IMG/VR virus record: IMGVR_UViG_3300037137_001341
Location: 32,001 to 96,000 of that record
Reading direction: 5' to 3' (one strand)
DNA: 64,000 bases
Source of the DNA: a virus
Both the position numbers and the translations under genes were made by a program. Each line of letters starts with the position of its first letter. Within the stretch, counting starts at the first letter, position 1. The notes below the pieces were generated by a model that saw only the letters and a program-made list of their open reading frames with translations, searched no databases and had not been told where the DNA came from. This document shows positions 30,005 through 56,330 of the stretch, piece after piece.

Positions 30005-30661
30005 CTACCGGCCTCTCGCTCGCGATTCGTGCTGCGCCTTCAGCTTCAGCCTGTACCGCTCTCCGGCTGCGAGCCTACTCTGATGCTTCTCGTAGGCACT
30101 CGTGTAGTCCGACGGTGAACGGGGGCGGTGCTTGTGCTGATGCGACTCCCACGCCATGTACTCGGCCGGTGAGCGGTGCATGTTCTCCTCGTACCCCTCC
30201 CCAGGCACGTAGTACTCGTACTCGGCGATGCCGCGCTTCCCGAGCCTTCGCTCTCCCTTGCGCGACTTGCGCCTCCCTCGCCGTTGCCGATGCCAGTCGT
30301 CGCCTGGCTTCCGCGGCGCTTCCCTGCCACGCTGGTGCCGCTTGTTCGGCGTGAGCTTCTTCTGCCCCCACCAGGCGTACCCGAACAGGAGCCCGAGCCC
30401 GATGCCGAGCGCAACACCGCCAGCGACCACGCCCCACGACGTCTCCTTGTACGTCGCCTCCGGGTCGGCCCCGAGCGCTGCCCAGTGCGGCAGGAAGTCA
30501 TCCTCCCCCGGGATGCTCTGCCCGAGCCCGCCGATGCCAACGCGCATGGGGCCCGCACGCAGCGGGTTGATGCCCCAGCCCGGCACCGGCGCGTTCTGCC
30601 AGCCAGGCGTCGCGACGGCAAGCTCGTGGTAGTCGGCGTCAGGCACGTTCCAGTACGACAT
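30005..30661 (-). CDS. Membrane protein with GLG tag and basic tail
   Basis: IGGLGQ, ALGAD, TM, then LTPN/YEEN and Arg-rich segment. Confidence 0.72.
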   Translation of the reverse strand: MSYWNVPDADYHELAVATPGWQNAPVPGWGINPLRAGPMRVGIGGLGQSIPGEDDFLPHWAALGADPEATYKETSWGVVAGGVALGIGLGLLFGYAWWGQKKLTPNKRHQRGREAPRKPGDDWHRQRRGRRKSRKGERRLGKRGIAEYEYYVPGEGYEENMHRSPAEYMAWESHQHKHRPRSPSDYTSAYEKHQSRLAAGERYRLKLKAQHESRARGR

Positions 30662-30800
30662 CGTCTTCTCCTTCGTCCGACGCCATCGCGGGCACCGGGA
30701 TCGTGTCCCGTTCGTTGTCGACGACCACGCCCCACTCCCAGGGGGAGGAGGCAAAGTCTTCCTGCGGCTCCTGGTTCTCCTGGTCGGGGTCCGGCGGCAT
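30639..30800 (-). CDS. Small acidic protein
   Basis: Preceded by GTGACT-17-TAGACT-7-ATG (30808..30836). Confidence 0.45.
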   Translation of the reverse strand: MPPDPDQENQEPQEDFASSPWEWGVVVDNERDTIPVPAMASDEGEDDVVLERA

Positions 30801-30832
30801 GTGCCCCAGTCTACATGCCCCCTGGGCGCGAG

Positions 30833-31069
30833 TCACCTGCGGCCCCGCATCCACCAGGCTCCCAGGCCCACGGCCATGACCACCGCGGCGGAGATGACCA
30901 CGGCGCCCCGCATGACGGCCATGTTGATGGCCGGCTGGGCCTGGTCCGAGGCGTCGTTGACCAGGGCCTCCATGGGCAGCGTGATCTCCGTGTCCTTCCC
31001 CCAGGGGAGGGGCAGGTCCACGAGGTACGTGATCGTCTTGCCGGGGCCGGCACCCATCGCTCGGTACAT
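30833..31069 (-). CDS. C-anchored membrane protein, paralog of 31311..31697
   Basis: GAGPG..PWGKDTEI; TM + RGRR. Confidence 0.75.
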   Translation of the reverse strand: MYRAMGAGPGKTITYLVDLPLPWGKDTEITLPMEALVNDASDQAQPAINMAVMRGAVVISAAVVMAVGLGAWWMRGRR

Positions 31070-31072
31070 GAG

Positions 31073-31306
31073 TCATTCCTCCGGTGGCGCGCCCGGAGGC
31101 ACCCACCACGCTTCGACATCACAGTCGACGTCGCGCCATCGCTGCTTGGTCACGCAGCCTCTGAGGAAGGCGTCCGTCTTCATGTGGGAGTCGAAGTACC
31201 CCTCCGCCTCCTCGCGCGTGTCACCCGCGAACACGTGTCTCACGATCGGATAGTCGTGCCCGCCGCCAGGCTCGTAGATGTCGACGACGAGACGCCACGC
31301 ATGCAC
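31073..31306 (-). CDS. Small hypothetical protein
   Basis: Fills gap in operon; protein-like. Confidence 0.6.
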   Translation of the reverse strand: MHAWRLVVDIYEPGGGHDYPIVRHVFAGDTREEAEGYFDSHMKTDAFLRGCVTKQRWRDVDCDVEAWWVPPGAPPEE

Positions 31307-31310
31307 CGCG

Positions 31311-31697
31311 CTACACGCCCTTCTTGATCCACCAGGCAGCGAGGCCGACCGAGAGGACCACCATGCCGGCGATGCCGAGCGCGGCCTTGATCGCGTCGTC
31401 CTTGACCATGTCGACCTTGGCGAACGTGATCTCCATCTGCTTCGCGATCTCGGGACGGATCACCTCGTCCATCACCTTCTTCACGAGCTTCGGCCCGTAG
31501 AGGTTCGCCTCGTCCTCCATGTCGTTGATGAGCTTCGTCTCCAGCGCGTTGATGTCCGGCGTGAGCGAAGCCCACGTGTCGGCGACCATCGCGTCGACCG
31601 GCACGACGATCTCCGTGTCCTTGCCCCACGGAAACGGCGCGTCGACCTTGTAGGTCTTCGTGGGACCGGGGCCTGCGCCGACGCCGTGGTAGCTCAC
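31311..31697 (-). CDS. C-anchored membrane protein
   Basis: YHGVGAGPG..PWGKDTEI; TM + KK. Confidence 0.75.
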   Translation of the reverse strand: MSYHGVGAGPGPTKTYKVDAPFPWGKDTEIVVPVDAMVADTWASLTPDINALETKLINDMEDEANLYGPKLVKKVMDEVIRPEIAKQMEITFAKVDMVKDDAIKAALGIAGMVVLSVGLAAWWIKKGV

Positions 31698-32335
31698 GCT
31701 GCCGCCTTCTGCTCGTACTCCCGCCGCAAGACCTCGTAGGCCACGTTGAACTTCTTCAGTCGCTCGACGTTCAATGCGCGCTGCCGATCGCTCTGCGGCC
31801 GGTCGGCGTTGTACTTCAACACGAGCTTCCGGTACTGCCGCTTGATCTGCTCCCAGTTCGAGCGCGGCGGCATCTTCAGCGCCTTGAGCGCCATCGCCAC
31901 GGACATGCCGCCGGGAGCCTGCTGCGCCGGAGGCGGCGGGGATTCCTGACGGCCGTTGGTCCATCCCTCGGCGCGCTTCCTGGCCTTCGTCTCCCCGATG
32001 CAGACCTCGCAGATCGCGTCCGCCATGTAGTCCACGCGGGAATGTGCCAGGCAGCACGGGCGCCCGCACACGTCGCACTTCACGACCGCGTACGACCGGC
32101 AGGCTCGGGGTCTCCCGGTGCTCACGTCGGGCGAGGCGCAGGGCGTGGGGGACATGACGGCGAACGTCCACTTCGAGAGCGCGTTCTTCGTGAGATGCGA
32201 GCCCCACTCCTTCAGCTGTTCGGCGACCTCCTGAGCGGCGGTCGAGCTAGCGCCAAGGTTCTGCGCCATGACGGACGCGAACGTCTCCCACGGGATCTCT
32301 GCGGTGGCCCGCTTGAGGCGCTCGAAGAGATCCAT
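31694..32335 (-). CDS. Zn-finger plus degenerate J-domain protein
   Basis: CDVC..CLAH..CEVC; IKRQYRKLVLKYNADR..FNVAYEVL (HPD replaced by NAD). Confidence 0.75.
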   Translation of the reverse strand: MDLFERLKRATAEIPWETFASVMAQNLGASSTAAQEVAEQLKEWGSHLTKNALSKWTFAVMSPTPCASPDVSTGRPRACRSYAVVKCDVCGRPCCLAHSRVDYMADAICEVCIGETKARKRAEGWTNGRQESPPPPAQQAPGGMSVAMALKALKMPPRSNWEQIKRQYRKLVLKYNADRPQSDRQRALNVERLKKFNVAYEVLRREYEQKAAA

Positions 32336-32342
32336 CTGGCGC

Positions 32343-33038
32343 CTACGCCGCGGCAGCCGGCCGCGTCGCGTAGAAGGCGCCGAGACCGAGCACGGCCCCG
32401 ATGCCCACGCCGGCCGCCATGCCCATCGGCTTGGTCTTCTTCCACAGGACGGCACCGAGGAGCCCCGCGACCGCGCCGCCACCGGCGTACATCGCGAGGT
32501 TCTTCTTGTCGTCATCCGTGAGCGGAGCCGCCGAGCCGAGACCGCGCAGATGACCACTGTGAACGACGGGGCGACGGGGAGGCCGCCGGCGCACCCTGCC
32601 GAGCCCGGCCGTAGCGCCTGCGTTGTACCAGGCGATCAGCGCCTTCTGGAAGCCGGCGTTCATGTGTGACCAGTCGTAGTCCGACAGAGACTCTGTCACA
32701 TCGACGAGCATCATGTCGCACGAGTCCAGCTGGTTGAACCGACCGAGCCCGTGCGCCTGACCCTTGTACGCAGACACGGTACACACGGAGATCCACCGTC
32801 CTGTATCCGTGTCGGTGTACCCACCGGTGTACCAGTGGTAGAGCGTGCTGCGGAATGTGTCCGGCAGCGCTTCCCACTCGCTGTCGTCCATGGCTTCCAC
32901 TGCCGCGACGAGAGCCGCGTCCGTCCCGTCGCTCTTGTTGTACTGGCCGACGCCGCTGAAGTACTCGCCCATGCCCTTCATCCCGGGCGGCTTGTACGCG
33001 AAAAACTCACCCATTCCTGCTGGTGCTTGCTTGTACAT
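32343..33038 (-). CDS. Membrane protein with multiple G-h-G tags
   Basis: GMGEFF, GMGEYF, GVGQ, GLG x3; two C-terminal TM. Confidence 0.75.
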   Translation of the reverse strand: MYKQAPAGMGEFFAYKPPGMKGMGEYFSGVGQYNKSDGTDAALVAAVEAMDDSEWEALPDTFRSTLYHWYTGGYTDTDTGRWISVCTVSAYKGQAHGLGRFNQLDSCDMMLVDVTESLSDYDWSHMNAGFQKALIAWYNAGATAGLGRVRRRPPRRPVVHSGHLRGLGSAAPLTDDDKKNLAMYAGGGAVAGLLGAVLWKKTKPMGMAAGVGIGAVLGLGAFYATRPAAAA

Positions 33039-33043: not shown

Positions 33044-34093
33044 TTACCTCTTCCTTCGTAGAACGAGTGCGATCCCGAGCAGCGCCACAGCGCCGAGCCC
33101 ATACATCGCCATGGTGCTCATCATCGGCGCGCTCGCGCCCCCGGTGTCCACCCGCGTGCCCTTCGTCTTGTCGGCCAGCGACAAGTACGGAGGCAGCACC
33201 GGGCCGCCGCCGCCAGCGAACCAGGCGTACAGGTTCGGCATCGACTTCTTCACGAAGTCCGGGCCCCCGCCCGCAGTGGTCGGAGCCGCCATGAGCCCGA
33301 CCATGATCCCGATCCCAGTGGCGTTCGGGTACGTCTGCGCTCCCGCGGACGCGCTCACGGTCTTGCCGCTCATCACCGGGGACGCGGATACGATGTACTG
33401 CCAGAGCACGCTCGCCGCCGGCTCCCAGATCCCGCTGGTGTAGAAGTCGGGCGTGTAGGTCGCCTGCGCCGTCGTACTGAGCGCGAAGCCGCCGCTCGAC
33501 AGCGCCATCAGCGACTTCACCTCGGCGAGCGTTGCCGCGTCACCGAGATCGAGCGTTATCCCGGTCACCGCAGCCGGCGCGCCTGCGCCGAGGCTTCCGT
33601 CATTGAACGCCCGCAGCGGGCCGAACGTGTTCATGCCCTCGTAGTGCGGCCCAAGGATCCCCTGGTTGTAGACCGAGATGGGCGTGCCACCGGCCTCGTC
33701 CGTATCTCCGAGCGAGCCATCGTTGTATGACCGCAGCGGTCCCGGCATCGAGGCGTCTGCCGGTGAGCCACCGACCACGCCGTCGGCGTACGCGAAGAGC
33801 GATCCAGCGGAGGCGTCACCGAGCCCGAGCGATCCGTCCGAGTACGCGAACAGCGGGCCAGGCATCGCGGACTCGTCCGGCGAGCCGCCGAACACGCCGT
33901 CCGAGTACGCCTGCAACGGCCCCTGCCCGAGCCCGAGCGATCCGTCCGAGTACGCGAACAACGGGCCAGGCATCTCGGCGCTTGCCGCCGAGCCCCCGAC
34001 GACACCGTCGGCATATGCCTGCAGCGGGCCCTGACCCAAGCCGCCGGCGCCCTGGGTGATCTTGGTGCTTCCGAAATATGCGCCTAGCGGCAT
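33044..34093 (-). CDS. Repeat-containing C-anchored membrane protein
   Basis: GPLxAYxDG repeats; TM + RRKR; GAGGAACACATG start. Confidence 0.78.
   Translation of the reverse strand: MPLGAYFGSTKITQGAGGLGQGPLQAYADGVVGGSAASAEMPGPLFAYSDGSLGLGQGPLQAYSDGVFGGSPDESAMPGPLFAYSDGSLGLGDASAGSLFAYADGVVGGSPADASMPGPLRSYNDGSLGDTDEAGGTPISVYNQGILGPHYEGMNTFGPLRAFNDGSLGAGAPAAVTGITLDLGDAATLAEVKSLMALSSGGFALSTTAQATYTPDFYTSGIWEPAASVLWQYIVSASPVMSGKTVSASAGAQTYPNATGIGIMVGLMAAPTTAGGGPDFVKKSMPNLYAWFAGGGGPVLPPYLSLADKTKGTRVDTGGASAPMMSTMAMYGLGAVALLGIALVLRRKR
33590..34035 (-). repeat. Intragenic tandem repeat, ~108-bp unit
   Basis: gagcccgagcgatccgtccgagtacgcgaaca at 33821 and 33929. Confidence 0.75.
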
Positions 34094-34122: not shown

Positions 34123-34350
34123 TCAGTCCCCTACGAAAGCCTCGATGCGGGGCCGCAGAAAGTACATGGCGATCCCGCCGGCTACGACGCCGACCCCGAG
34201 CCAGGCCCAGCCGGGCACACCGGCGCCGATCTCGTCCGCCCCGAGCCCAACGGCCCTCCCGAGGATCCCCATGGGGCCGCCCACGTTGTCCATCGTGGGC
34301 CCGAGCGCCTCGGCGCCAGCCGCAAGAGACCTCTTCTGCTGATCGGTCAT
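34123..34350 (-). CDS. Small C-anchored membrane protein
   Basis: VGLGADE; TM. Confidence 0.7.
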   Translation of the reverse strand: MTDQQKRSLAAGAEALGPTMDNVGGPMGILGRAVGLGADEIGAGVPGWAWLGVGVVAGGIAMYFLRPRIEAFVGD

Positions 34351-34571
34351 CGGGACCTCGGCCTCACCGGATCACGCAGCACGAAATACCCGAGCACGAT
34401 CGCCACCCCGAGGAGCCCGAGCGCCATCCGGTGCGCCAGCTGCACGGTCTCCGGCGACGGCTCCGTTGGAGCATCGCCCATCGCGCCCGAGCAGCCGCAG
34501 CCGCCCACGCCGACGAGCTTGCCGGACATGTCCCCGTAGGGAGGGACACCGGCGATGGCGACCAGATTCAT
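34347..34571 (-). CDS. Small C-anchored membrane protein
   Basis: GVGGCGCSGAMGDA; TM + basic tail. Confidence 0.68.
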   Translation of the reverse strand: MNLVAIAGVPPYGDMSGKLVGVGGCGCSGAMGDAPTEPSPETVQLAHRMALGLLGVAIVLGYFVLRDPVRPRSR

Positions 34572-34573
34572 GT

Positions 34574-35491
34574 TCACTTCTTGTACTTCCGGTACATGTA
34601 GTAGCCGCCGCCACCCACCGCGAGCAGCGCAAGGATCCCCCACATCGCCGACGTCGAGGACGCCTGCGTCGTTGGCTTGTGGAACATCGGGATGCAGTTG
34701 CTGCCGACCAGATGTGATCCGGGCGGGCAAGTCGTCGCTACTGTCAGCGCCACGCAGTTGCCGTTCGCGTCCCACACGTACCCTGGTGAGCAGTCGCCCG
34801 CGCAGACGCTCGTGCCGTCCGTGAAGTGGAACGGTGACCTGCCCGCTGGACACGTCACGCAGTTCCCGTTCGCGTCCCAGGCATGCTCCGGGTCACAGAT
34901 CCCCGCGCACTGCCCCTTGAAGAGCGCGTGCCCCGGAGGACACGACGTCACCGCGCACGGCGGCGCCGCCATCAGCTTCGCCCACCAAGCGGGATCGTGT
35001 TGGCCGAGCCAGCAGAGGACGTTCCAGTCCTTGTTGTCCCCACCTCCCGCGTTGCAGTAGTCCCGCAGCTTCGCGAACTCCGGCGTGATGCACGCAGCAG
35101 GAGCCGGGAGTCCGGCGCCGGGACAGAACGGGAGCTTCGAGAGCGCGATGGCGGTCCACTGCGCCGCCGTGTCATTCACGCAGTCGAAGTCCGGGTTCAG
35201 CACGCGGCCATTGGCGCAGTTGGCGATAACGCCGGCCGTGTACGTGTCGATGCACGTCGGCGTCGGGCAGATGTTCGAGTCGGCAACAGAACACGGCGGA
35301 AAGGCGGCCAGCCTCCCACTCATCTTGTACTCGACGCCGAGCCCGGTCAGCGTTCCGCTTCTCTGAGCCGCACAGAGCCCGACCGCCTCGTCATGCTCCG
35401 CCTGCGAGACACACGTCGGCTCCGAGAGGGAGCGGATCCCGCTGGGGGTCATCTCCAGGAGGCCGAGACCTGTCATCGATCGGTACGTCAT
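34574..35491 (-). CDS. Cys-rich C-anchored membrane protein
   Basis: MTGLG, LTGLG; CxxGxxWDANGNC modules; TM + RKYKK. Confidence 0.78.
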   Translation of the reverse strand: MTYRSMTGLGLLEMTPSGIRSLSEPTCVSQAEHDEAVGLCAAQRSGTLTGLGVEYKMSGRLAAFPPCSVADSNICPTPTCIDTYTAGVIANCANGRVLNPDFDCVNDTAAQWTAIALSKLPFCPGAGLPAPAACITPEFAKLRDYCNAGGGDNKDWNVLCWLGQHDPAWWAKLMAAPPCAVTSCPPGHALFKGQCAGICDPEHAWDANGNCVTCPAGRSPFHFTDGTSVCAGDCSPGYVWDANGNCVALTVATTCPPGSHLVGSNCIPMFHKPTTQASSTSAMWGILALLAVGGGGYYMYRKYKK

Positions 35492-35495
35492 CGGA

Positions 35496-36050
35496 TCACT
35501 TCTTCCTGAGCATCATGTACCCGAGGCCGAGCACAGCGACGGCACCGAGCCCGTACAGAGCCATGGTGGTCGTGCTCATGCCGGCCTGCGTGTCTCCGCC
35601 GCCGCCGGCGGAGCAGTGCGGAGTCTCCTGCGCCTTGTCCCAGTACGTCGGCGACTTGCTGGCGGCCCAGCAGAGCGAGTTCATCCCGGCCGTCGGCCCG
35701 TCGAAGAACGGGTACTTGTCGCAGTACGCGAGCCCCTGCAGATACGTTTCGTCGAGGCACGCCGGCATGCCACCGGCGAACGCCGTGTCGAAGCTCGGGC
35801 ACCCTGGAAGGGCGTCCACGCCGCACTGATTCAGGTGAGCGCAGAGCGCGCTCCACACGGCGGCGCTCACGCCGGGGGGAGCCGGCTCCTTGGCCTTACA
35901 TTCGGCGATGGCCGCGATCCAAGTCTGATCGAGGCACGTGTTCCCGCCCTCCGTGGGGATCCCCTGACCGCACGGCAGAGCGGTCGCGTACTGCATGGCC
36001 TGCTCAAGCGTGGGGGGCGGTTCGGCTCCTATGCTGCTGTTTCGGTACAT
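35496..36050 (-). CDS. Cys-rich C-anchored membrane protein
   Basis: SIGAE; YC..NSLCW domain shared with neighbours; TM + RKK. Confidence 0.78.
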   Translation of the reverse strand: MYRNSSIGAEPPPTLEQAMQYATALPCGQGIPTEGGNTCLDQTWIAAIAECKAKEPAPPGVSAAVWSALCAHLNQCGVDALPGCPSFDTAFAGGMPACLDETYLQGLAYCDKYPFFDGPTAGMNSLCWAASKSPTYWDKAQETPHCSAGGGGDTQAGMSTTTMALYGLGAVAVLGLGYMMLRKK

Positions 36051-36056
36051 GGCGCA

Positions 36057-37097
36057 TCACTTCTTTCTCATCACCATGTAGCCGACACCGAGTGCGACGA
36101 GCGCGCCGATCCCGAACATAGCCATGGTCGTGCTGCTCATTCCGGCTTGCTGCGTGCCGCCACCGCCACCGCCGGCGGACGGCGGGACACATGCGCCGGT
36201 GACCGGATCACGGGTGTACCCGTAGCCGTATACGGAGCAGTCGTCGGCCGGCAGGATGTGCTTGGTCGTGTCGGCCTGCAGCACGCAGGTACCGCTGGAG
36301 TCCCTGATGTAGCCGGTGTCGCACGGGGTCGGCAGCTTCACGTCTGCAACGCAGTCGCTTCCGACCAGATGGAAGCCCGCGCTGCACGTCTTGGGTGGTG
36401 GCGGCGTCGGCGCCGCTACAGGGATGCAGTTGCCGTTCGCGTCCCACACGTACCCTGGTGAGCAGTCGCCGACGCACTGGCCCTTGAACATCGAGTGCCC
36501 AGGAGGGCACGTCGTCGGGGCGGCGCCCGCAGTTGCCACGCAGTTGCCGTTCGCGTCCCAGACATATCCCGGTGAGCAGTCGCCGACGCACACGAACTTC
36601 TTCGACGGCAGCATGAACATCGAGTGCCCAGGAGCGGCAACCGGAACGTCCATGAACTGCTGGTACAGATCCGGGAAGCGATGCAGCGTCCAGCAAGCCG
36701 CGTCGAGACTAGGGTTCCGTGGGTAATTGACCGGAAACGTCTTGCAGTAGTTGATCTCGTTCCGAAAGACGGTCCCGACTTCCGACGTATCGGTGCATCC
36801 CGGAATCATGGCGATCCATGGCGCCGTGTCGATGTCCGAGCAGCCCAGCTTCTTGAACATGCCGCAGGTTCCGAGTGCAGCACGCGCATCCTGGAACTGC
36901 TGGTCGGTCAAGTTGGCCGGCTTCTGGCCGGTGTAGAACAGCGACAGGATCTGGATCATCTGCGCGCTGAGACACGGCGCGTTAGCCAAGTCCGCGGGGC
37001 AGCCGTTCACTGCGATCCCGTAGAGCAGGTACGCGACCTGATCCGGCGTCAGCGGGGCCTCGGCGGCCCCGAGTCCTCTCATCTCTCTGTACGTCAT
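36057..37097 (-). CDS. Cys-rich C-anchored membrane protein
   Basis: MTYREMRGLGA start; repeated CVGDCSPGYVWDANGNC; TM + RKK. Confidence 0.78.
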   Translation of the reverse strand: MTYREMRGLGAAEAPLTPDQVAYLLYGIAVNGCPADLANAPCLSAQMIQILSLFYTGQKPANLTDQQFQDARAALGTCGMFKKLGCSDIDTAPWIAMIPGCTDTSEVGTVFRNEINYCKTFPVNYPRNPSLDAACWTLHRFPDLYQQFMDVPVAAPGHSMFMLPSKKFVCVGDCSPGYVWDANGNCVATAGAAPTTCPPGHSMFKGQCVGDCSPGYVWDANGNCIPVAAPTPPPPKTCSAGFHLVGSDCVADVKLPTPCDTGYIRDSSGTCVLQADTTKHILPADDCSVYGYGYTRDPVTGACVPPSAGGGGGGTQQAGMSSTTMAMFGIGALVALGVGYMVMRKK

Positions 37098-38084: not shown

Positions 38085-38372
38085 TCACGGCTTGTACCTC
38101 GAAGGGTTGAGCCGCACGGCGGTATCCCATGCTCCGTCCCTGGAGATCAGGGCAGTCTCCGCCGCCTCCACATCTCCGGCGTCCTCCAGGTAAACGCGCA
38201 TGTCCTCGAAGACACCAGACACGATCTCGAAGAGCTTTGATGGATCTCCGTGCAGGAGGTCCAGCGCCTCCATGACTCGCTCGTGCGCCATGTCCGACTT
38301 CGTCGGTGGACCACGACGGCTTTTCTTGCCGTGAATCCCAGCCGCCGGAAGCATCTTCATGTTCCTTTTCAT
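38085..38372 (-). CDS. Small hypothetical protein
   Basis: GGAGG RBS, ATGA coupling; starts MKRN. Confidence 0.55.
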   Translation of the reverse strand: MKRNMKMLPAAGIHGKKSRRGPPTKSDMAHERVMEALDLLHGDPSKLFEIVSGVFEDMRVYLEDAGDVEAAETALISRDGAWDTAVRLNPSRYKP

Positions 38373-39277
38373 CGTGGCCCTCCACCGAGCGACCCTGGAC
38401 CACCGCTCGCGTTCGTCAGGGGCTTCATGCACTCCATCAAGGAGTCGAGGTGAAGCTCCGGGATCAGCATCCCCGCGATGTCGTACTCGATGAACGCGAT
38501 CGGCGACGGGATGGGCTGGAAGATCACGCACCGGACCTGCACGGTCTGGTTCGACCTCGCGTAAAGCGTGAACGGCACCGACAAGGGACCGTACCGCGTC
38601 GGCCGCTGCGGCAAGAGCGACGTACCGACGCCGGCCGCGCTCGCGAAGCTCGACGCCCCGGCGATGTTGAACGTGGACCCCTGCGCCGCTCCGACCGCTG
38701 CCGCGAGCGCGGGCGGAAGCTCACCCCCTCCGATCGCTGGCGTCGTGAAGGCCTGCGTGAACGTCTGGATGGGCACGGGGTCCAGCTGGTACAGCAGGTT
38801 CCCCGGCTGGTGCTGGTCCACGCTGATCTGGAAGCCCATGATCGAGGAGAAGCGCCGGGCTTCGACAGGCACGGTGTCGCCAGCGTCCACACCCGAGAAC
38901 CGGTAGATGTCCGGGCGGAGATCGAACAGGAGGAGCGCGAACGTGCTCGGCACCTTGAAGGCACCAAGCTCGAACGTGAACGGCGTCTCCGGGCTGACGT
39001 CGTCGAGGAACATGCCCTCCTCGGGCAGCCGCCGGTACAGCTGCTCGAACGGCACCACCGACGGGTGCACCATCAGGGAGCCCAGGAAGCCACCCGCAAG
39101 CTGCACCCGATCCGCGTTGCACCCGAGGGATGTGCCCTCGCCAGGGTACGGCGCCGGGGGCGGAGCATCGCCCAGCCCCGGTCGCAGGTACTGCGCGGGG
39201 CGCGCGGGCGGCTGGACCGAAGGAAGGCCCAGCCCCGCGATCTGCCTTGCTGAAAGGTGCAGAGGGGGCTGGTTCAT
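38369..39277 (-). CDS. Beta-rich protein, candidate jelly-roll minor capsid/penton
   Basis: Alternating hydrophobic strands; N-terminal IAGLG/PGLGD; terminal strand EYDIAG. Confidence 0.5.
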   Translation of the reverse strand: MNQPPLHLSARQIAGLGLPSVQPPARPAQYLRPGLGDAPPPAPYPGEGTSLGCNADRVQLAGGFLGSLMVHPSVVPFEQLYRRLPEEGMFLDDVSPETPFTFELGAFKVPSTFALLLFDLRPDIYRFSGVDAGDTVPVEARRFSSIMGFQISVDQHQPGNLLYQLDPVPIQTFTQAFTTPAIGGGELPPALAAAVGAAQGSTFNIAGASSFASAAGVGTSLLPQRPTRYGPLSVPFTLYARSNQTVQVRCVIFQPIPSPIAFIEYDIAGMLIPELHLDSLMECMKPLTNASGGPGSLGGGPR

Positions 39278-40274: not shown

Positions 40275-40449
40275 TGTCTTGTGCCTCCGGTTAGGAGTAC
40301 CGGACGGGAACCCAGGGTACATGCCCCAAGCGTCCCAGTCCGTGCCATCGGTCAGATTCAGGCCCGGCCCCAGGTCGCCCCAGGGCCGGTCCGCGCTCAC
40401 TGAGACGTCCAGTGACTCACAGGCAAGTGCCCGGAATCACTGGGCTTTC

Positions 40450-46754: not shown

Positions 46755-47800
46755 CAGCGTCTCCCTCGGAAGAAGTACACGCCGAGCGCAACGGCGGCCA
46801 GTGCGCCAACGGCAACGAGCACCTTCGCGCGGTTGTCCTGCGCTCGCTGGTCCGCCTCACCGAGCGCGAGGTTCATGCGCTGGCGGAAGCAGTCGGGGTC
46901 TCCGTTGCAGCCGATGACCCAATCGAGTGCCTCTACCGGCTCGACGCCACGGCTCTTCAGAGCGGCGAGCACGGTGAGGTCCGCGGCGTTCTGCGGGACG
47001 TTTAGCGCGAGATCGAGCCAGGCACGCTCCTGCACCATCGATCCGATATACGCAGCAAGCTCGTTAAGCTCCTGCGTGCGTTCCATGTCATCGAGGCTCT
47101 CTCCAGCGGCGACTTGCTGTCGCGCTGCAGCGGCAATCTGCGCGTGTGTCGGAGGCGGAACCGGAGCCGCGGCCGACGCCGGAGGAGGAGACAGCACCGT
47201 GCCGGGAGGAGGCTCGGCGGCAGAGACGAACTGGATCTTGTTCGCACTGTCCGTCGTCATCTTGCAGACGGCGATCGGCTGACACGGCACAGAGTCGCCG
47301 CCGAAGTTAAACCGCAGTTCGCGCTCACACCAGCCGGTCGGCGTTCCGTACGCGCGCAGCGTCGTGCTCACCGCGCTCCACGCCTCGAAGGCGTCCTGGA
47401 AGTTCTGCGCGCAGGGCGCCGGATCCTTCCTGTTGTGGAGCTTGTCCTGGACCCTTGCCGCCAAGTCGTACGCGAGCGCGCTGGCCTGCTTGTAGTCCTT
47501 GCCCGGCTTGACCCTCTGCTCCGCGATGACCGTGTTCGCTACGATGTGAGCCGCCGTGATCGCGTAGTTCAGCGGCCACACCGCGGCGACCAGCGGATCG
47601 GCAGGGATCACCACAGATGCGCCCTGGTCACCGGCATATGCCAGAATCGTATGGACGTCTCCCCCACCGCTGAGCATCGCCTGCGCAGTCTCGACGGCGA
47701 CGCGATGTAGCTCCGCAAGCCCGGGGCCACCCCAGAGGTAGTCGTACGGTTCCGGCACCACCTGCGGGACCGGCAGTTCACCGAAGCCCCCGTAGCTCAC
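46754..47800 (-). CDS. C-anchored membrane protein
   Basis: Starts xSYGGFGE; TM + RGRR. Confidence 0.7.
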   Translation of the reverse strand: MSYGGFGELPVPQVVPEPYDYLWGGPGLAELHRVAVETAQAMLSGGGDVHTILAYAGDQGASVVIPADPLVAAVWPLNYAITAAHIVANTVIAEQRVKPGKDYKQASALAYDLAARVQDKLHNRKDPAPCAQNFQDAFEAWSAVSTTLRAYGTPTGWCERELRFNFGGDSVPCQPIAVCKMTTDSANKIQFVSAAEPPPGTVLSPPPASAAAPVPPPTHAQIAAAARQQVAAGESLDDMERTQELNELAAYIGSMVQERAWLDLALNVPQNAADLTVLAALKSRGVEPVEALDWVIGCNGDPDCFRQRMNLALGEADQRAQDNRAKVLVAVGALAAVALGVYFFRGRR

Positions 47801-48036
47801 GACTGCCTCCAGATCATGTACCCCGACGCAACCAGGAGCCCGAGGCCGATGAACCCGACAGTCGACAGACGTACCTGCGACGTCTCCTGCTCTGAGAGCG
47901 TCTTGCTGATCTGCAACAGCTGCTTTTGCTCCAGCGTCAGCGGCTTGCAGTCGCCGTTCTCGTCCCAGGCGTAGCCGGGGCTGCATATGCCGACGCACTG
48001 GCCCTTGAAGAGCGCATGACCAGAAGCGCAGGTCAT
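47797..48036 (-). CDS. Mini Cys-module C-anchored protein
   Basis: CASGHALFKGQCVGICSPGYAWDENGDC; TM. Confidence 0.72.
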   Translation of the reverse strand: MTCASGHALFKGQCVGICSPGYAWDENGDCKPLTLEQKQLLQISKTLSEQETSQVRLSTVGFIGLGLLVASGYMIWRQS

Positions 48037-50183
48037 CGCCTCATCATCCTCGCTGCGGCCCATCCCGCAAGGGCGCCGCCGCCGACGGCAAGAAGCCCGT
48101 AGTTCAGCGCGTCGCCACGGCGCTGGCCCCGGCGGCGCGCCTCCTTCACAGCGGTGCGGAACGAGGCTGCGTTCGCGGCCACCTTGCGCACAGCATCCCG
48201 CTTGATGGCCGCGCTCGCGACGAGCCACTCGTTGCCGGTATGTGTCGCCGCCACGTCGGCCGCCTGCGCCATCTGCTGCTGGACCGAGTACTGGCTCGTG
48301 GCCATCGAGACCGTTCGCGCCACGTCACGCTGCACAAGAGCCGACGCCGCGGCGGCCTGCTGGAGCGACCCATGCAGCCACCGACCCCACTCCGGGGTCG
48401 AGCAGCCACCAACCTCGGTGCCTCCACTCCACGCGACCGTTCCGATCTTCTGAAGCTCCTCCTTGTCGGAGTGCTCGTAGCTGTCCCACTTGGTCACGTT
48501 GCGGTCTGCGAACTGCCCCTCGACGCAGTCGTAGTCCCACTTCCACATGTTCGGCTTGCCGGCGCGACGATGGCAGCGGTTGACCGTGCGGGGATCTTCT
48601 GCCGCCGCGTACTCGGAGCCCTTCATCGCCAGGACCACCTGGAACGGCGTCACGTACCGGCGGGCTCTCCAGAACGCCAAGGAGGAGAGGGCGTCGCAGC
48701 TGGGGCTCTGCTCGGTGATGTTCGGGATGCGAGCCTGCCCGAGCGCGGCGCGCGAGTAGTCATACGAGTCGCGAACGACGATCGGGTCGGTGAAGAACTG
48801 CAGGTACGGACACCCGGCCGGAACGACGCAGGAGCGTGTGACCGGATACGGGTAGCGCATGTACTGGTGCGCCTTCGCGTCGATCGGGACCGGGTTGCCG
48901 TTCTGGTCGTAGACGAAGTCGAGCGTGTTGCCGCCGGCTTCCATCTCAGGAAACAGGCGGATTCCGTCCCCGCTCGCCGCCGTGCAGCTGATCCCTTGCG
49001 AACGACCGTACGGGCGCAGCCATTCATCGTTCACCTGCATGAGCCCGTCGAGGCTTCCCTGCATCTTCTGCCAGTACAGCTGGTACTGGACCCACAATGT
49101 CGCCGCGAGATCCGTGCAGACCGCGGTCCCGGCCGCCGCCGCCTGACGCGCTGCCTGCTGCGCCAAGCTGAGCTTCTCGCTGTCGGTCGGACCGAATCCG
49201 AGCGCGTCTGCCAGAACCGGGACGAGCGCGCCGCCGATGATGTTCCCCAGAATGGCTCCGATCGGAGCGGGGAGCCCGAACAGCTGCCCGATGGCAGCGC
49301 ACATGGTGCCGCACGCGCCGATGATGATGCCCTCAACGCCCGCGAGCGAGATTGAGCCAGTGCTGATCGCGTCCACGGTAAGCTCGCACATGGAGAACGC
49401 GGTGCCGGGAATGATCTGCAGCATTGCGGCCCGACCGCAGGAGTGCAGGAACGCGGTCGGATCCGTGTTCGTAATGATCGGGATGCCGAACCGCGACATG
49501 TAGGAGGACCCGAGCGCGAGCGCCCACGATTCGGCGCCGTCCACGGTCGTCGGCAGATTGTGGATCATCTGCCCGGCGGCGATCAGTTCGGGAGGCAGAC
49601 CGATCTGTCCGCAGTTCGTGAGGACGAACGACTGCATCATCGCCACCGCGGCTTCGGGCGTCGGGTTCGTCAGCAGGTTCGGGTGCGAGAAGATGTAGGC
49701 CTCGCACCAGTTGACGGTCTCGTCGTCGCTGAGCGGGTTCCTGATGCTGATGTCGGGCGCGTTCGGCAAGCCGCTACGCGCCTTGGCCAAGGTATCGCGC
49801 CCCCGCTGGACATATCCCTGAAAGACCGGTCCGGCCCAGGCGGCTGCCTGCTCCCCCGCCCACTTCTTGATGGTATCTCTGCCGCTGCTCGACGTCGGGT
49901 CCACGATGGGGACCCACGGCACCTGGATGCCGGTGTCACTGGCGAAGTCGCTCCTCGCCTTGTCCGCCGCCGCCTGCGTCACATACCCCTGCGCGCCGGG
50001 GCTGATGGTGTTCACGTACGCGGGCGCCCCGGCGGGGCCTCCGGCGACCACGGCCTTGTAGAGCCCCACTTGCGTGCCGGTGTCGGCTGGGATGGCGATG
50101 CCGCCGTTCACGGAAATCTGCCCCAGCCCACTCCGGCGCGGGACCCAGATGTGCGGGCCACGGCCGCCGCCGGAGAAGGTCAT
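48033..50183 (-). CDS. Large C-anchored membrane protein with internal hydrophobic hairpin
   Basis: RSGLGQ; Gly/Ala-rich central helices; terminal TM + RR. Confidence 0.72.
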   Translation of the reverse strand: MTFSGGGRGPHIWVPRRSGLGQISVNGGIAIPADTGTQVGLYKAVVAGGPAGAPAYVNTISPGAQGYVTQAAADKARSDFASDTGIQVPWVPIVDPTSSSGRDTIKKWAGEQAAAWAGPVFQGYVQRGRDTLAKARSGLPNAPDISIRNPLSDDETVNWCEAYIFSHPNLLTNPTPEAAVAMMQSFVLTNCGQIGLPPELIAAGQMIHNLPTTVDGAESWALALGSSYMSRFGIPIITNTDPTAFLHSCGRAAMLQIIPGTAFSMCELTVDAISTGSISLAGVEGIIIGACGTMCAAIGQLFGLPAPIGAILGNIIGGALVPVLADALGFGPTDSEKLSLAQQAARQAAAAGTAVCTDLAATLWVQYQLYWQKMQGSLDGLMQVNDEWLRPYGRSQGISCTAASGDGIRLFPEMEAGGNTLDFVYDQNGNPVPIDAKAHQYMRYPYPVTRSCVVPAGCPYLQFFTDPIVVRDSYDYSRAALGQARIPNITEQSPSCDALSSLAFWRARRYVTPFQVVLAMKGSEYAAAEDPRTVNRCHRRAGKPNMWKWDYDCVEGQFADRNVTKWDSYEHSDKEELQKIGTVAWSGGTEVGGCSTPEWGRWLHGSLQQAAAASALVQRDVARTVSMATSQYSVQQQMAQAADVAATHTGNEWLVASAAIKRDAVRKVAANAASFRTAVKEARRRGQRRGDALNYGLLAVGGGALAGWAAARMMRR

Positions 50184-52391: not shown

Positions 52392-52790
52392 TCACCTCTT
52401 CTTGGAAGCGCGGTAGATGAGGGCTCCACCGACAGCGACGGCCGCGATGGCCCCGCCGTAGAGCATCCAGTTCGTGCCGCCGGTGCCGCCGAACATGCCT
52501 GCGCTGGTGCCAGGTTTCTTCGTCCCCGTGTCGCCGTACACGACCACCTCGGGAAGCGTGATCACGCCGATGCTGTTGCCCGAGAGGCTCCCGTTGCCGA
52601 CCCCGTTCATGCCGTCCGGGCTGAGCCCCACCTGCTTCGGCAGAATGGCGCGGAGCCTCGCGTTCAGGAACGAGATGTCCCTGTACTGGTGCTGCCCAGC
52701 GTACCCGAGCCCTGCCATCGGAGGACGAGCCTGCTGCCACTCCGCGTTCAGCAGAGCGTAATCCTCGTAGGCGATTGTTCCGTAGGCCAT
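52392..52790 (-). CDS. C-anchored membrane protein
   Basis: MAGLGY, MNGVGN; TM + KKR. Confidence 0.7.
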   Translation of the reverse strand: MAYGTIAYEDYALLNAEWQQARPPMAGLGYAGQHQYRDISFLNARLRAILPKQVGLSPDGMNGVGNGSLSGNSIGVITLPEVVVYGDTGTKKPGTSAGMFGGTGGTNWMLYGGAIAAVAVGGALIYRASKKR

Positions 52791-52794
52791 CGGC

Positions 52795-53553
52795 TCACTT
52801 CCTCTTCTTCGACATGTACAGGCCGGCACCGACCGCGGCGACGACGAAACCACCGAGCATCCAGGCCGTGGCGCTGGAGGACTTGCCCGTCGTCGGCCCG
52901 ACGTGCGGAGCATCGGCGATCTTCGCCGGGAGCACCATGTTCGGGCAATCCAGATCGAAGCGGATGCTTGTACATCCAGCCGGCAGCGAGGGGAGCACCG
53001 GATGGAAGCTGATGCCAAGCTCATGGAGCTTGAACATCGCTCCGCAGGTCGCGCTGTCGTACACACCGGTCTGCGGGATCGCGTTGTAGCCGGCGGCGGT
53101 CAGCGCAGTGCTCAGCGCATCCTGCAGATCATCCGCGATATTGCTCTTCTGGTTCAACGCGAGGAAGCACGGATCGGCCGCCGGCCCGGCTGGGGGCGAG
53201 GTCCCACCACTAGAGGGCGCGACCGGCGCGGCGGTCGAGTCCGACGGGGCCTGAGAAGGAGCAGGCGCAGCCGCGACCCACGACGCCGGCAACTTCACGA
53301 CGTCCCCGACCTTCGCGCAGAACCCGTACTGCGTGCACTTGTGCGCCGGGTTCGCCGTGGCAAGTTCGGTCCACCGGTTGCCGTTGCCCGTGATCGCCTT
53401 CGCGACGGACGTGCCGGTGTCCCCGCTCCTCCAGGTGTACGTCGGCGCCGATGACAGACCGAGCCCCCCGAAGCCCATGTTCGAGCCGTCGAACAGGCCG
53501 CCGCCGTAGCCGCCGCCACCGAAGATGCCTTCTCGCGTGTGAACCTGGATCAT
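52795..53553 (-). CDS. LysM plus PG-binding-like C-anchored protein
   Basis: YTWRSGDT..VAK..WTELATANP..VGDVVKLP; LQDAL..TGVYDSAT; TM + KKRK. Confidence 0.75.
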   Translation of the reverse strand: MIQVHTREGIFGGGGYGGGLFDGSNMGFGGLGLSSAPTYTWRSGDTGTSVAKAITGNGNRWTELATANPAHKCTQYGFCAKVGDVVKLPASWVAAAPAPSQAPSDSTAAPVAPSSGGTSPPAGPAADPCFLALNQKSNIADDLQDALSTALTAAGYNAIPQTGVYDSATCGAMFKLHELGISFHPVLPSLPAGCTSIRFDLDCPNMVLPAKIADAPHVGPTTGKSSSATAWMLGGFVVAAVGAGLYMSKKRK

Positions 53554-53555
53554 TG

Positions 53556-53831
53556 CTATCTCCTGACGAGACAAAAACCGCCGATGACGCCGATTGCACC
53601 GAGGAGCCATGGCGTCCACGGCGCGTAGGTCTCCGCAGTCGCCGCCGCCTGACCGAGTCCGTTGGCAGGGACGAAGCCGCGCCTGAGCATCCCCGGCTGG
53701 AGCCCCATCGTGCGCGGCGGGATCATGCCCAGGCCCTGCGTCGACCAGTTCGACGGAACGTGGATGACGTCACGGAAGATGGCCGCGCCCTCTTCGCGCT
53801 CCTGCAGACCCTTTCCATCTCGACGGTACAT
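53556..53831 (-). CDS. Small C-anchored protein
   Basis: QGLGM, NGLGQ; TM + RR. Confidence 0.68.
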   Translation of the reverse strand: MYRRDGKGLQEREEGAAIFRDVIHVPSNWSTQGLGMIPPRTMGLQPGMLRRGFVPANGLGQAAATAETYAPWTPWLLGAIGVIGGFCLVRR

Positions 53832-53834
53832 GAC

Positions 53835-54155
53835 CTAGTAGCTGCCTTTGTAGCCGGAGAAGTGGAGGTACGCATACGTCGCAAGCCCCAGGGCCGCGAT
53901 GAACAGCACCGTCTTCCCGACGGACGGGCCAGCCGTGTCGTCCCCAAGCCCTTGCATCCCCGCTTCGAGCCCGAAGTCGTTCGGTCGCTCCGCCCACGGG
54001 AGCCCGAACTGCGGGCGCGTGTAGATCGGCCCGTGGAACCGCGTCGGGTACGAGTGCAGCATCACGGTGTACGGGTTCGGCACGCCAGGGGGCACCGGAC
54101 CGTCGTACGTGTTCAGCGACTGGCCTAAACCAGCCATGCAGGGAACGCACGCCAT
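53835..54155 (-). CDS. Small C-anchored protein
   Basis: MAGLGQ, MQGLGD; TM. Confidence 0.72.
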   Translation of the reverse strand: MACVPCMAGLGQSLNTYDGPVPPGVPNPYTVMLHSYPTRFHGPIYTRPQFGLPWAERPNDFGLEAGMQGLGDDTAGPSVGKTVLFIAALGLATYAYLHFSGYKGSY

Positions 54156-54158
54156 CGT

Positions 54159-54554
54159 TCAGCCCTTCCTCTTGTTCGCGACGATGCCCATGACGCCGAG
54201 ACCGAGCACCCCGGTGAAGAGCCCGACCGGCACACCGATCCAGCCCCACGTGGTCGCATCCTGCCGAGACGGCGCAATCGCCTTGCCCGCCTGGTAGCTC
54301 AGCGCGCCTGCGACGCCGAGGATCGCCAGCATCCAGGCCATGTCCGCGCTCGTCATCTTCGTGTCCACCGGGACGCCAGTCCCTGTGTCAGCCGGGGCAT
54401 CCCCGAGCCCACGTATCGCAGCCACCACGGGGCTCAGCGCGAAGAACCGTGACTTGCCGACCGCGCCGGTGCCGGCGGCTGCCTGCGTCATGGCGCCGGC
54501 AGGGACGTCCTGCGAGAAGACGTCGAACGTGGGCAAAATGCTTTGGCTGTCCAT
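54159..54554 (-). CDS. Membrane protein
   Basis: IRGLGD; TM hairpin + KRK. Confidence 0.72.
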   Translation of the reverse strand: MDSQSILPTFDVFSQDVPAGAMTQAAAGTGAVGKSRFFALSPVVAAIRGLGDAPADTGTGVPVDTKMTSADMAWMLAILGVAGALSYQAGKAIAPSRQDATTWGWIGVPVGLFTGVLGLGVMGIVANKRKG

Positions 54555-54561
54555 GTGCTCC

Positions 54562-55257
54562 TCACTTCTTCATCAGGGTCGCGGCCACGATGCCGACCGC
54601 GACGCCGACGATGGCGAATCCCGCGAAGATGCCGAACTTGGAGCCGGAATCCGTCGCCGGAGCATCGGCACCGAGCCCGTTCACTGGCCACGCCTCCTCG
54701 TTCGGGATCCAGGTCCCGCCGGGATCGGGATGCGTGACGTTCTGCGGACTCACGCCGGGAGGAAGCTCCCAGAGCAGCTGCCTCTCGCGCACGGTGTCCA
54801 GCTGGCTCTGATCGATCGCGACCGCGCCGCCGGGCACGTACATGACGGGCTGGCCAGTGGTCGCGTCGATCACCTCCGACGGCTGGTAGTCGATCGAGTT
54901 CACCAAGTAACCCGGCATCGAAGCGTGGTCCGCGAACACGCCGTAATCCGGGTGGATGTTCCCCTGCGTGCCGTGCGGATCGAACACGCCATTGCCTTGT
55001 ACATCGTCCGCTGCTGCGAGCGTGTTTAGCTCGTTCGCGTAATCCTTGATTCCGATGTCTGCGGTCATGCCGTTGTCTCCCAGGCCCGCGATGTTGCGCC
55101 CACGCGCGCCGCGGTACATGTCGTACGAAGGGTTCATGCCGCTCGGACGCATGTCCGGCGGCCCGATCTCGTCGATGCTCGGAAGGTCGCCGCCGAACAT
55201 CGGCTGGCTCGCGTACACCGGGTACGGGGGACGCAGGGCTCGAAGGACGTTGCTCAT
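54562..55257 (-). CDS. C-anchored membrane protein
   Basis: IAGLGD, VNGLGA; TM + KK. Confidence 0.75.
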   Translation of the reverse strand: MSNVLRALRPPYPVYASQPMFGGDLPSIDEIGPPDMRPSGMNPSYDMYRGARGRNIAGLGDNGMTADIGIKDYANELNTLAAADDVQGNGVFDPHGTQGNIHPDYGVFADHASMPGYLVNSIDYQPSEVIDATTGQPVMYVPGGAVAIDQSQLDTVRERQLLWELPPGVSPQNVTHPDPGGTWIPNEEAWPVNGLGADAPATDSGSKFGIFAGFAIVGVAVGIVAATLMKK

Positions 55258-55844
55258 GTGATGCTCCTTGGCGCTCCCGGATCTTCATCGAGGCTCACCG
55301 TGTAAAAAGTCGTCACACGATCGAGCATGCCGCGCTCGTCCGTGCCCCCGACGGGGTCACAAACTACCCATTCCCCGCTTCGCGGTTCCTTCACGCGCGT
55401 GAACACGTGGCTGTACTGGCCGGCCTCACCGAAGCCGACGACCACGAACTCGGCGACGCGGCCAAGCTGCAACGCCATCGTCGCGATGATCGTCGCCATG
55501 TCATCGCAATCACCGATCGCACTTCCGTGCGCGGCTACTTCCTCGACGAGCCTCTGTGCGTCCTTCACGAGTTCGGTGTGCAGGGGGTCGTTGACGTAAT
55601 GAACGCGCTCCGTCACCCAGTACCGCACCGCCAGGATCTCGCCGAGGTAGTCCTTCGGCTGCACCTGTCGAACGATCTGCTCGACCATGCTCCGCACGAG
55701 CATGCTCTTCTCGCCCCGTTCGCCATGCGTCGCGCTCACCATGGCCCGGAGTGTGTCCGGGTGACCATGAAAAGCGCTCAATGAGTGTGGCGGGTTAGCG
55801 GAGAGCAAGGGTATCCCGAGCCGGGGGTCGGGAGCGCCCTGCAC
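55254..55844 (-). CDS. Transglutaminase-fold cysteine protease candidate
   Basis: YVNDP, GDCDD, SHVF, WVVCDP (Cys-His-Asp triad). Confidence 0.82.
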   Translation of the reverse strand: MQGAPDPRLGIPLLSANPPHSLSAFHGHPDTLRAMVSATHGERGEKSMLVRSMVEQIVRQVQPKDYLGEILAVRYWVTERVHYVNDPLHTELVKDAQRLVEEVAAHGSAIGDCDDMATIIATMALQLGRVAEFVVVGFGEAGQYSHVFTRVKEPRSGEWVVCDPVGGTDERGMLDRVTTFYTVSLDEDPGAPRSIT

Positions 55845-55849
55845 TCGGA

Positions 55850-55878
55850 AGCCTACCGGCGCCAGGCTCGTAACTCAA
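55850..55878 (-). promoter_or_regulatory. Sigma70-type promoter (leaderless)
   Basis: TTGAGT-17-TAGGCT-5-GTG. Confidence 0.6.
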
Positions 55879-55916
55879 GCGCGGGATATGTCCTGGGGTT
55901 TTCCGGCTACTTCGTC

Positions 55917-56123
55917 TCAGCCCCGCGGCTCCGACAGCATCCATGCGCGCCCCTCGGCGCGCCGCATCGCGACCACGCGGGCCGTGCCCTTATCGAGCAG
56001 CACGCTCGCGATGGCGAGCGCGGCGAAGATGCTGGTCCCGAGCCACCAAACCTTTCTGTCCTCCTCGCTCGTGTCAGCGCCGATGCCGATGGAGGAGCAG
56101 CAGGTTCCGATTTGGCGGTACAT
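55917..56123 (-). CDS. Small membrane protein
   Basis: IGIGAD; TM. Confidence 0.65.
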   Translation of the reverse strand: MYRQIGTCCSSIGIGADTSEEDRKVWWLGTSIFAALAIASVLLDKGTARVVAMRRAEGRAWMLSEPRG

Positions 56124-56126
56124 GAT

Positions 56127-56330
56127 CTACCGGCTCCCCCGAAGCCCGAGCGGGTCCTTCGCGTCAATGGCGAAGAACGCGACCGCGAGGCCCACGAGGA
56201 GGCCGCCTGCGACCCAGCTGGTGCCCGAACCCATCTGCGCCGTGTCGGCGCCGATCCCAGACATGTGTCTGCGCCCGTGCGGCCTGACCAGTGGCGCGCC
56301 GCCGTAGCCACCTGCGACGCTGTGGTACAT
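56127..56330 (-). CDS. Small membrane protein
   Basis: MSGIGAD; TM. Confidence 0.68.
   Translation of the reverse strand: MYHSVAGGYGGAPLVRPHGRRHMSGIGADTAQMGSGTSWVAGGLLVGLAVAFFAIDAKDPLGLRGSR

Follow-up and report, generated by a model that had tools for sequence, protein, structure and literature searches.

The membrane-protein gene array

The stretch analysed here, hereafter the window, comprises 64,000 nucleotides (positions 32001-96000) of the 116,237-bp record IMGVR_UViG_3300037137_001341, which belongs to an uncultured bacterial virus and has a GC content of 66-67%. Its genes are short and tightly packed, with frequent overlaps of four bases. We describe a short Gly-Leu-Gly tag carried by otherwise unrelated proteins of one long minus-strand gene array, which runs from about 56.3 kb down to 30.0 kb of the window and encodes about 36 proteins, and a transglutaminase-fold enzyme (55254-55844) encoded within the same array. 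The array is interrupted only by plus-strand genes for a glycosyltransferase and a phosphoesterase. Most array proteins close with a single hydrophobic helix and, after it, a few Arg or Lys residues in a row; we refer to proteins of this form as C-anchored.

Scans against Pfam, PHROG and NCBIfam assigned no family to most of the 36 array proteins. When ten late proteins were compared with PHROGs, no family was found in the tagged module, and the only matches were to 15962-20236 (integrase domain) and 27185-29383 (fibre-like). The sole match from an NCBIfam scan of ten C-anchored proteins was a weak LPXTG_anchor hit at one C-terminus (52795-53553). We considered a sortase signal at this site and rejected it, reading the match as a generic helix with a basic tail.

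IMG/VR contains related records of 111-140 kb, two of which have direct terminal repeats, and the genes near the capsid candidates and the membrane-protein array keep their order in these relatives. The comparison set for tag statistics consisted of the window genome and five related genomes of this size that were fetched whole (labels include G001-G005). Gene calls for the counts were made with a model combining third-position GC and codon log-odds. Membrane helices were masked by simple hydropathy, and tags were counted outside the helices.

A Gly-Leu-Gly tag is enriched in C-anchored proteins

A preliminary description of this DNA had proposed that a G-(L/V/M/I/F)-G tag is shared by 25 or more proteins of the cluster and is rare in the early region. 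With expectations computed from the composition of each segment itself, the cluster (30005-56400, 36 proteins, minus strand) contained 43 copies of G-[LVMIF]-G against 18.4 expected (P 7e-7). Leu carries this excess: G-L-G occurred 26 times against 5.8 expected (x4.5, P 7.5e-10), and the four remaining forms together reached only x1.35, which is not significant. The proposed enrichment thus survived correction for composition in its Leu form and was not upheld for Val, Met, Ile or Phe. At least one tag was present in 23 of the 36 cluster proteins, slightly fewer than proposed, compared with 26 of 149 proteins elsewhere in the genome. Those other 149 proteins contained 34 copies of G-[LVMIF]-G (41.8 expected) and 16 of G-L-G (13.5 expected), which agrees with the claim that the early region shows no enrichment of the tag. 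The control tripeptides G-[AST]-G, A-hydrophobic-A and L-G-L were not enriched in the cluster; G-G-G was (x2.4).

The carriers had also been described as unrelated in sequence. A helix-masked BLAST comparison divided 38 cluster proteins into 34 families, 22 of them tagged, which bears this out and rules out paralogy as the cause of the shared tag. Because so many independent families carry it, no common ancestor detectable in the sequences explains the tag.

We repeated the count in all six genomes, classing proteins solely by the presence of a C-terminal helix. G-L-G exceeded expectation in the C-anchored proteins of each genome (x2.0-6.2), compared with x0.9-1.1 in the remaining proteins of the five relatives and x1.7 in those of the window genome. 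In a scan of all 8000 tripeptides across the six genomes, G-L-G ranked first in C-anchored proteins (75 against 20.0 expected, P 4e-21, in 59 proteins). It was not in the top list for proteins lacking this anchor, where collagen-like fibre repeats lead. Composition as the source of the excess is ruled out by the corrected counts in the cluster, in the six genomes and in the all-tripeptide scan.

Anatomy and conservation of the tag

Across the six genomes, the middle residue is Leu in 75 of 134 tags. At the second position ahead of the first Gly there is an excess of Met (x4.1), Phe (x2.7) and Val (x1.9), and also of Leu. The second Gly is most often followed by Ala (31%), Asp or Gln, then by Asp, then by Pro; at the position directly behind the tag, Gln ranks fourth (10 of 134 tags, x1.8). 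Tags are concentrated toward the N-terminus, with a density per 1000 residues of 9.8 at positions 1-30 that falls to 2.5 past residue 120, and the first 60 residues are about four times denser in tags than the region beyond residue 120. M-S-Y, M-T-Y and M-Y are frequent starts among tagged proteins, with only a few residues separating start and tag. The tripeptide M-S-Y was found 15 times in the six genomes against 1.3 expected, and Tyr is the second or third residue of 38 out of about 180 C-anchored proteins.

In alignments of orthologues, the two Gly columns are conserved at 0.63 and 0.65, above their flanks, so that the tag is retained among orthologues as the preliminary description had anticipated. 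Identity is about 0.5 before the tag and 0.27-0.41 over the seven residues after it, a drop that may mark a linker or domain border. Single sites were followed in the protein encoded directly downstream of the enzyme (54562-55257). Among 120 homologues, its first site reads G-R-x-[L/F/I]-A-G-[L/V/I]-G; the core is almost invariant in the approximately 97 that cover the region, and the second Gly is present in about four fifths. Its second site is retained in about half of the homologues. The distant orthologue in G004 begins directly with the tag, having lost all preceding sequence. Tag positions drift between orthologues more generally. Tags may also be repeated: A-A-G-hydrophobic-G-E-Y-F occurs five times within residues 689-775, in the tail of the 837-aa protein (41385-43898), and these repeats are conserved in G001, G002, G003 and G005, one of which has extra copies.

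The tag is a real feature of these genomes: it is confined to one protein class, it is conserved, and neither composition nor paralogy explains it. As a separate observation, a Gly-Cys-Gly-Cys motif lies beside the tag in several tiny membrane proteins (34347-34577 and its orthologues in G001-G003).

The transglutaminase-fold enzyme

The product of 55254-55844 matches Pfam Transglut_core (PF01841) at 27.5 bits, above the curated cut-off of 23 (E 4e-6). Asp112-Cys113-Asp114, His146 and Asp163 are invariant in 35 homologues, and the identification of a transglutaminase-fold enzyme at this position in the preliminary description was therefore correct. In homologues down to 25% identity, the His and Asp are still invariant and the Cys is at least 90% conserved. 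An AlphaFold2 (AF2) model had a mean confidence (pLDDT) of 87.8. The Foldseek neighbours of this model were the transglutaminase-like putative proteases 3kd4_A (E 9e-5) and 3isr, together with 2f4o, PNGase and Rad4/XPC, and further LapG (4u65_E, E 3.6e-3; 4fgp_B and 4fgq_A; probability 1.0), TgpA, and PeiW and PeiP, which are endoisopeptidases of pseudomurein. The enzyme is thus predicted from its model to have a papain-like transglutaminase fold with a Cys-His-Asp triad. Because its neighbours are so diverse, the fold indicates Cys-His-Asp acyl-enzyme chemistry on an amide bond but leaves the particular amide unspecified. A sequence profile of the enzyme had no meaningful match among solved structures, LapG chains included.

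The enzyme was found in all five relatives at 52-71% identity, in each case adjoining the same membrane-protein array. The preliminary description placed it at the head of the cluster. It does lie near the head of the operon, and two tiny membrane open reading frames (ORFs) and an 880-aa gene precede it, so that it is not strictly the first gene. A complex prediction for the enzyme with residues 1-205 of its downstream neighbour (54562-55257) scored 0.03, well short of the 0.32 mark, a result that does not bear on binding either way.

A search with the enzyme profile across 1.84 billion representatives returned 3893 clusters at E values up to 1e-3, which makes the enzyme family a large one. 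Several homologues (P0364, P0366, P0368, P0373, P0378, P0383, P0385, P0387 and P0220) contain inteins exactly between Asp112 and the catalytic Cys113, either mini-inteins of about 135 aa or longer ones of about 330 aa with a LAGLIDADG-type endonuclease. Inteins typically occupy strongly constrained sites, and insertion at the catalytic Cys is as expected for a site under strong selection. Cys113 would double as the first residue after the intein, the nucleophile used in splicing; the copy in the window is itself free of inteins.

Two scans of viral contigs for distant homologues of the enzyme, each with a single protein, gave no match. In a 34.8-kb record with 51% GC (L009, IMGVR_UViG_3300028610_002683), a 25%-identical homologue is followed by C-anchored proteins, and two proteins of this record start M-S-M-G-L-G and M-G-I-G-L. 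Judged by these starts, L009 suggests that the pairing of enzyme and tag may extend to small relatives.

Particle type and relationship to SSIP-1

The protein encoded at 39291-40400 has more than 700 metagenome homologues, all without names. Its AF2 model (pLDDT 59, moderate confidence) contains a long N-terminal helix and a beta sandwich, and the best structural matches of the sandwich (VIA, Z about 7) were the jelly-roll capsid proteins of PBCV-1, SPV1, HCIV-1, STIV and faustovirus. The neighbouring candidate (40450-41229) is linked only weakly to PRD1 P3 and P2.

Among 50,697 GenBank phage records, the sole homologue of the enzyme was gp34 of Salisaeta phage SSIP-1 (24.7% identity, E 3e-7; phmmer E 1.8e-11), which is annotated in its record as a structural protein. 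SSIP-1 is a 100-nm, T=49 phage with an internal membrane and two major capsid proteins (PMC6356626, PMC6260650). The late modules of the two viruses are laid out alike, with a coiled-coil protein, the enzyme and then many small C-anchored proteins. Several C-anchored neighbours of gp34 have G-M-G or G-L-G near the N-terminus, and gp34 is itself anchored in the membrane by a C-terminal helix, as the tagged proteins are. The window enzyme, in contrast, has no membrane anchor of its own. The two also differ in genome size (44 kb compared with 111-140 kb in the group to which the window belongs), and apart from gp34 there is no detectably similar protein; a phmmer comparison of capsid and packaging proteins found no match in the window genome for SSIP-1 gp40, gp45 or gp46. 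Together with the jelly-roll matches and the abundance of small membrane proteins, the link to SSIP-1 fits a tailless, membrane-containing particle.

We also noted that the whole 116-kb genome showed no gene for a terminase, a portal or an HK97-type capsid, nor one for a classical packaging ATPase with a Walker A motif. Outside the tiny membrane proteins, Walker A matches were limited to a small kinase-like protein and a DnaB-like primase-helicase.

Other features of the array and the window

The features of the array are collected in Table 1.

Table 1. Genes of the tagged array, with the location of tags in their products (coordinates are window positions; residue numbers refer to each protein)
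Position	Strand	Product	Tags and remarks
30005-31697	-	three C-anchored proteins (218, 78 and 128 aa)	first protein, residues 42-47; third protein (start M-S-Y), residue 5
32343-33014	-	C-anchored protein, 223 aa	five tags (residues 14, 21, 89, 137, 158); two close two repeated modules
33044-34093	-	C-anchored protein, 349 aa, eight Gly/aromatic repeats	residues 18, 54, 90
34123-34577	-	two small membrane proteins (75 and 76 aa)	one each (residues 35, 23)
34574-35476	-	C-anchored Cys-rich protein, 300 aa	residues 3, 45; both G-L/V/M-G in three relatives
36057-37097	-	C-anchored Cys-rich protein, 346 aa, start M-T-Y	residue 8; weak TIL/EB-like Cys modules
38369-39277	-	conserved soluble protein, 302 aa	two in N-terminal arm (residues 15, 34), one at 216
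39291-40400	-	candidate capsid protein, 327 aa with the start found in database homologues	
40450-41229	-	candidate capsid protein, 259 aa, most conserved in module (57-80% identity)	G-L-G at residue 24, absent in distant relatives
41385-43898	-	837-aa protein with very basic N-terminal half, membrane helices and tagged tail	also at residue 660
46754-47800	-	C-anchored protein, 348 aa, start M-S-Y	residue 5
48033-50183	-	C-anchored protein, 716 aa	residue 19, preceded by a conserved N-terminal peptide
52392-52790	-	C-anchored protein, 132 aa	residues 27, 63
52795-53553	-	C-anchored protein, 252 aa, Gly/aromatic-rich N-terminus	residues 27, 30; both kept in G001, G002
53556-53831	-	C-anchored protein, 91 aa	residues 33, 58
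53835-54137	-	C-anchored protein, 100 aa	residues 3, 63; second kept in G001, G002, G005
54159-54554	-	C-anchored protein, 131 aa	residue 49 (I-R-G-L-G-D); G-L-G kept in G001, G002
54562-55257	-	C-anchored protein, 231 aa, directly downstream of the enzyme	residues 58, 194
55254-55844	-	transglutaminase-fold enzyme (PF01841), about 185-196 aa, without membrane helix	
55917-56330	-	pair of tiny membrane proteins (68 and 67 aa) encoded upstream of the enzyme	G-I-G-A-D in each

Several other genes deserve mention. Four C-anchored proteins (34574-37097 and 47797-48063) contain Cys-rich modules with a repeated C-x-G-x-C-S-P-G-Y-x-W-D-x-N-G-x-C motif and weak TIL/EB-like Pfam matches; modules of this disulphide type are surprising in proteins without signal peptides. 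A DnaJ-domain protein (31694-32335, Pfam E 7e-7) is encoded within the membrane-protein array, and by eye its His-Pro-Asp motif appears to be Asn-Ala-Asp instead. Outside the array, 15962-20236 encodes a 1424-aa protein whose tyrosine-recombinase (phage integrase) domain is confined to residues 60-560, the remaining approximately 860 residues having no family. The 732-aa fibre-like protein at 27185-29383 has about 35 short repeats of the Ser-His-Ala-Glu-Gly type and matches YadA head repeats and phrog_25468.

Possible functions of the tag

We tentatively favor a combined sorting and trimming code that is read by the enzyme, with a probability of roughly 0.38. The tag would be a short linear signal, hydrophobic-x-Gly-Leu-Gly, often continued by Ala or Asp, then Asp or Glu, then Pro, and carried outside the membrane, in the N-terminal parts of proteins that a tail anchor holds in the viral membrane. 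It would mark proteins destined for the particle. The neighboring Cys-His-Asp enzyme, probably packaged, would then cut at or just after the tag, with a Gly on either side of the tag Leu and the Leu itself held in an S2 pocket that, as is usual for papain-like enzymes, would be hydrophobic. This reading draws on the position of the enzyme inside the tagged array, the hydrophobic residue at the position that papain-like enzymes read, the variable linker after the tag and the precedent of phage T4 leaders. Also in its favor are the enrichment, N-terminal bias and conservation of the tag, the invariant triad, the presence of LapG among the fold neighbors, the structural annotation of SSIP-1 gp34 and the inteins at the catalytic Cys. 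That the enzyme is a protease and acts on the tag is inferred, as is the side of the virion membrane that the tags would face.

Known systems offer partial parallels. The adenovirus protease AVP cuts at (M/L/I)-X-G-X-G and (M/L/I)-X-G-G-X. Like the system proposed here, it pairs a cysteine enzyme (packaged, in the case of AVP) with one short Gly-based motif on many unrelated particle or core proteins, including those that condense DNA, and the window tag too has a hydrophobic residue two positions before the first Gly. The likeness to the adenovirus consensus suggested in the preliminary description is seen at that position, where Met, Phe, Val and Leu are favored. It does not extend to the middle residue, which is Leu in the window and any residue in AVP sites, or to the fold, since the window enzyme is transglutaminase-like and no adenain or Ulp1-like protease was among the strong fold matches. 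The window tags also differ in being carried by membrane-anchored proteins, where cutting is conjectural. In phage T4, capsid-targeting leaders of about 10 residues on unrelated internal proteins are removed by the prohead protease gp21, showing that very short leaders can be cut. The N-terminal bias of the tag and the M-S/T-Y ... G-L-G starts resemble such a common leader. T4, however, is tailed, its protease is a serine enzyme of a different fold that cuts at L/I-x-E sites, and many window tags are internal or tandem.

LapG and its relatives (BTLCP) have the same fold and triad as the window enzyme. LapG is a site-specific transglutaminase-like protease that cuts at small residues, its substrate site being di-alanine; it differs in being periplasmic, dependent on calcium and directed at a single substrate type, and it lacks a match to the window enzyme at the sequence level. 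The cargo-loading peptides of encapsulins are short, contain Gly-hydrophobic-Gly, occur on unrelated proteins and dock in a pocket of the shell. In these features they are like the tag, but they are C-terminal and serve an HK97-fold shell, whereas the window tags are N-terminally biased and the shell candidates are jelly rolls. No Pfam match to a C39 peptidase-transporter fusion was found among the 30 window proteins scanned, a subset of all ORFs.

Several observations weigh against trimming. Tandem tags about ten residues apart, in runs of five to eight whose number varies among relatives, would be odd for cut sites and are typical of multivalent binding. Conservation is higher in the segments that precede the tags than in those that follow, and the G004 orthologue of 54562-55257 starts at the tag itself. 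The fold of the enzyme is likewise shared by PNGase, by true transglutaminases and by cell-wall endoisopeptidases (PeiW and PeiP). In distant relatives, the tag is missing from the main capsid candidates. Finally, the preliminary description expected tag and enzyme to occur together; both are present in the window genome and its five relatives, but SSIP-1 has the enzyme with a tag count no higher than chance (4 against 3.2 expected) in its small genome, a size at which the comparison tells little.

Much of this would be accounted for if the tag docks without being cut, a possibility that we take seriously and that the preliminary description had raised as a capsid pocket that reads the tag; that alternative is equally alive. 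Together with a nearby Tyr or Phe, the tag would bind the capsid or a matrix, tying the membrane proteins and the 837-aa DNA-binding protein to the jelly-roll shell. The enzyme would have another task, most likely cutting cell-wall peptides at entry or exit. Tandem tags in variable number are found in the tail of the 837-aa protein, whose gene is just upstream of the capsid candidates, and tags cluster at the protein end most distant from the membrane anchor. The conserved stretches ahead of the tags and the retention of a tag at the extreme N-terminus in G004 are also in keeping with docking, as are the virus-encoded wall endoisopeptidases among the fold neighbors and, judged by eye, the anchoring of other wall enzymes of the genome by the same C-terminal helix and basic tail. 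However, the receptor pocket would be hypothetical and the capsid candidate models poorly. Docking also leaves unexplained the constant place of the enzyme inside the tagged array, the hydrophobic residue two positions before the tag and the linker-like region after it. Trimming and docking fit the data about equally and are not mutually exclusive; we place trimming first.

It is rather unlikely that the tag is instead a generic cohesive or hinge motif without a single reader, lying in a Gly/aromatic-rich, low-complexity layer that sticks to itself between membrane and shell. The G-G-G enrichment (x2.3-2.4 with the all-tripeptide scan included), the Gly/aromatic or Arg-Gly-Gly-like runs in several tagged proteins and the drift of tag positions among orthologues would suit such a layer. 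The strong preference for Leu and the flanks conserved at single sites over 120 homologues argue against it. A tag excess is also not seen in the membrane proteins of PRD1 and P23-77, the only cultured phages used for comparison besides SSIP-1, which gave no enzyme match in the phage search and whose small genomes make the comparison uninformative. Least probable, and in our view very improbable, is that a true transglutaminase staples the particle by joining a tag-adjacent Gln (G-L-G-Q) to Lys or N-terminal amines. The fold family and the excess of Gln after the tag are what such cross-linking would predict, but Gln follows only a minority of tags, and small bacterial members of the superfamily are generally taken to be mostly hydrolases.

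Sorting and trimming by the enzyme may have a wider reach. It is conceivable, if doubtful, that SSIP-1-like membrane phages of about 35-140 kb share a short leader of the Gly-hydrophobic-Gly type, which would direct a DNA-condensing protein and dozens of unrelated tail-anchored proteins to the nascent particle, and a packaged transglutaminase-fold cysteine protease that trims these proteins. Such a code would parallel, in bacterial viruses and through an unrelated enzyme, both adenovirus AVP and the removal of leaders in T4.

Implications for membrane-containing phages

To our knowledge, little is known of how tailless phages with a membrane select their inner-membrane proteins, and our literature searches found no paper on the tag, the role of the enzyme or this virus group. 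One short tag on about 22 unrelated families, with a conserved enzyme adjoining them, provides a testable handle on how proteins are chosen for the inner membrane of the particle. The virus group is a large one, as the number of capsid-candidate homologues and the 111-140 kb genomes attest, and SSIP-1 is a cultured relative in which bench tests are possible. A docking tag would amount to a natural and portable signal by which proteins are loaded on a viral membrane or shell. Should the enzyme cut the tag, maturation by a protease that reads one motif would extend from adenoviruses and tailed phages to membrane-containing viruses of bacteria, with a different protease fold.

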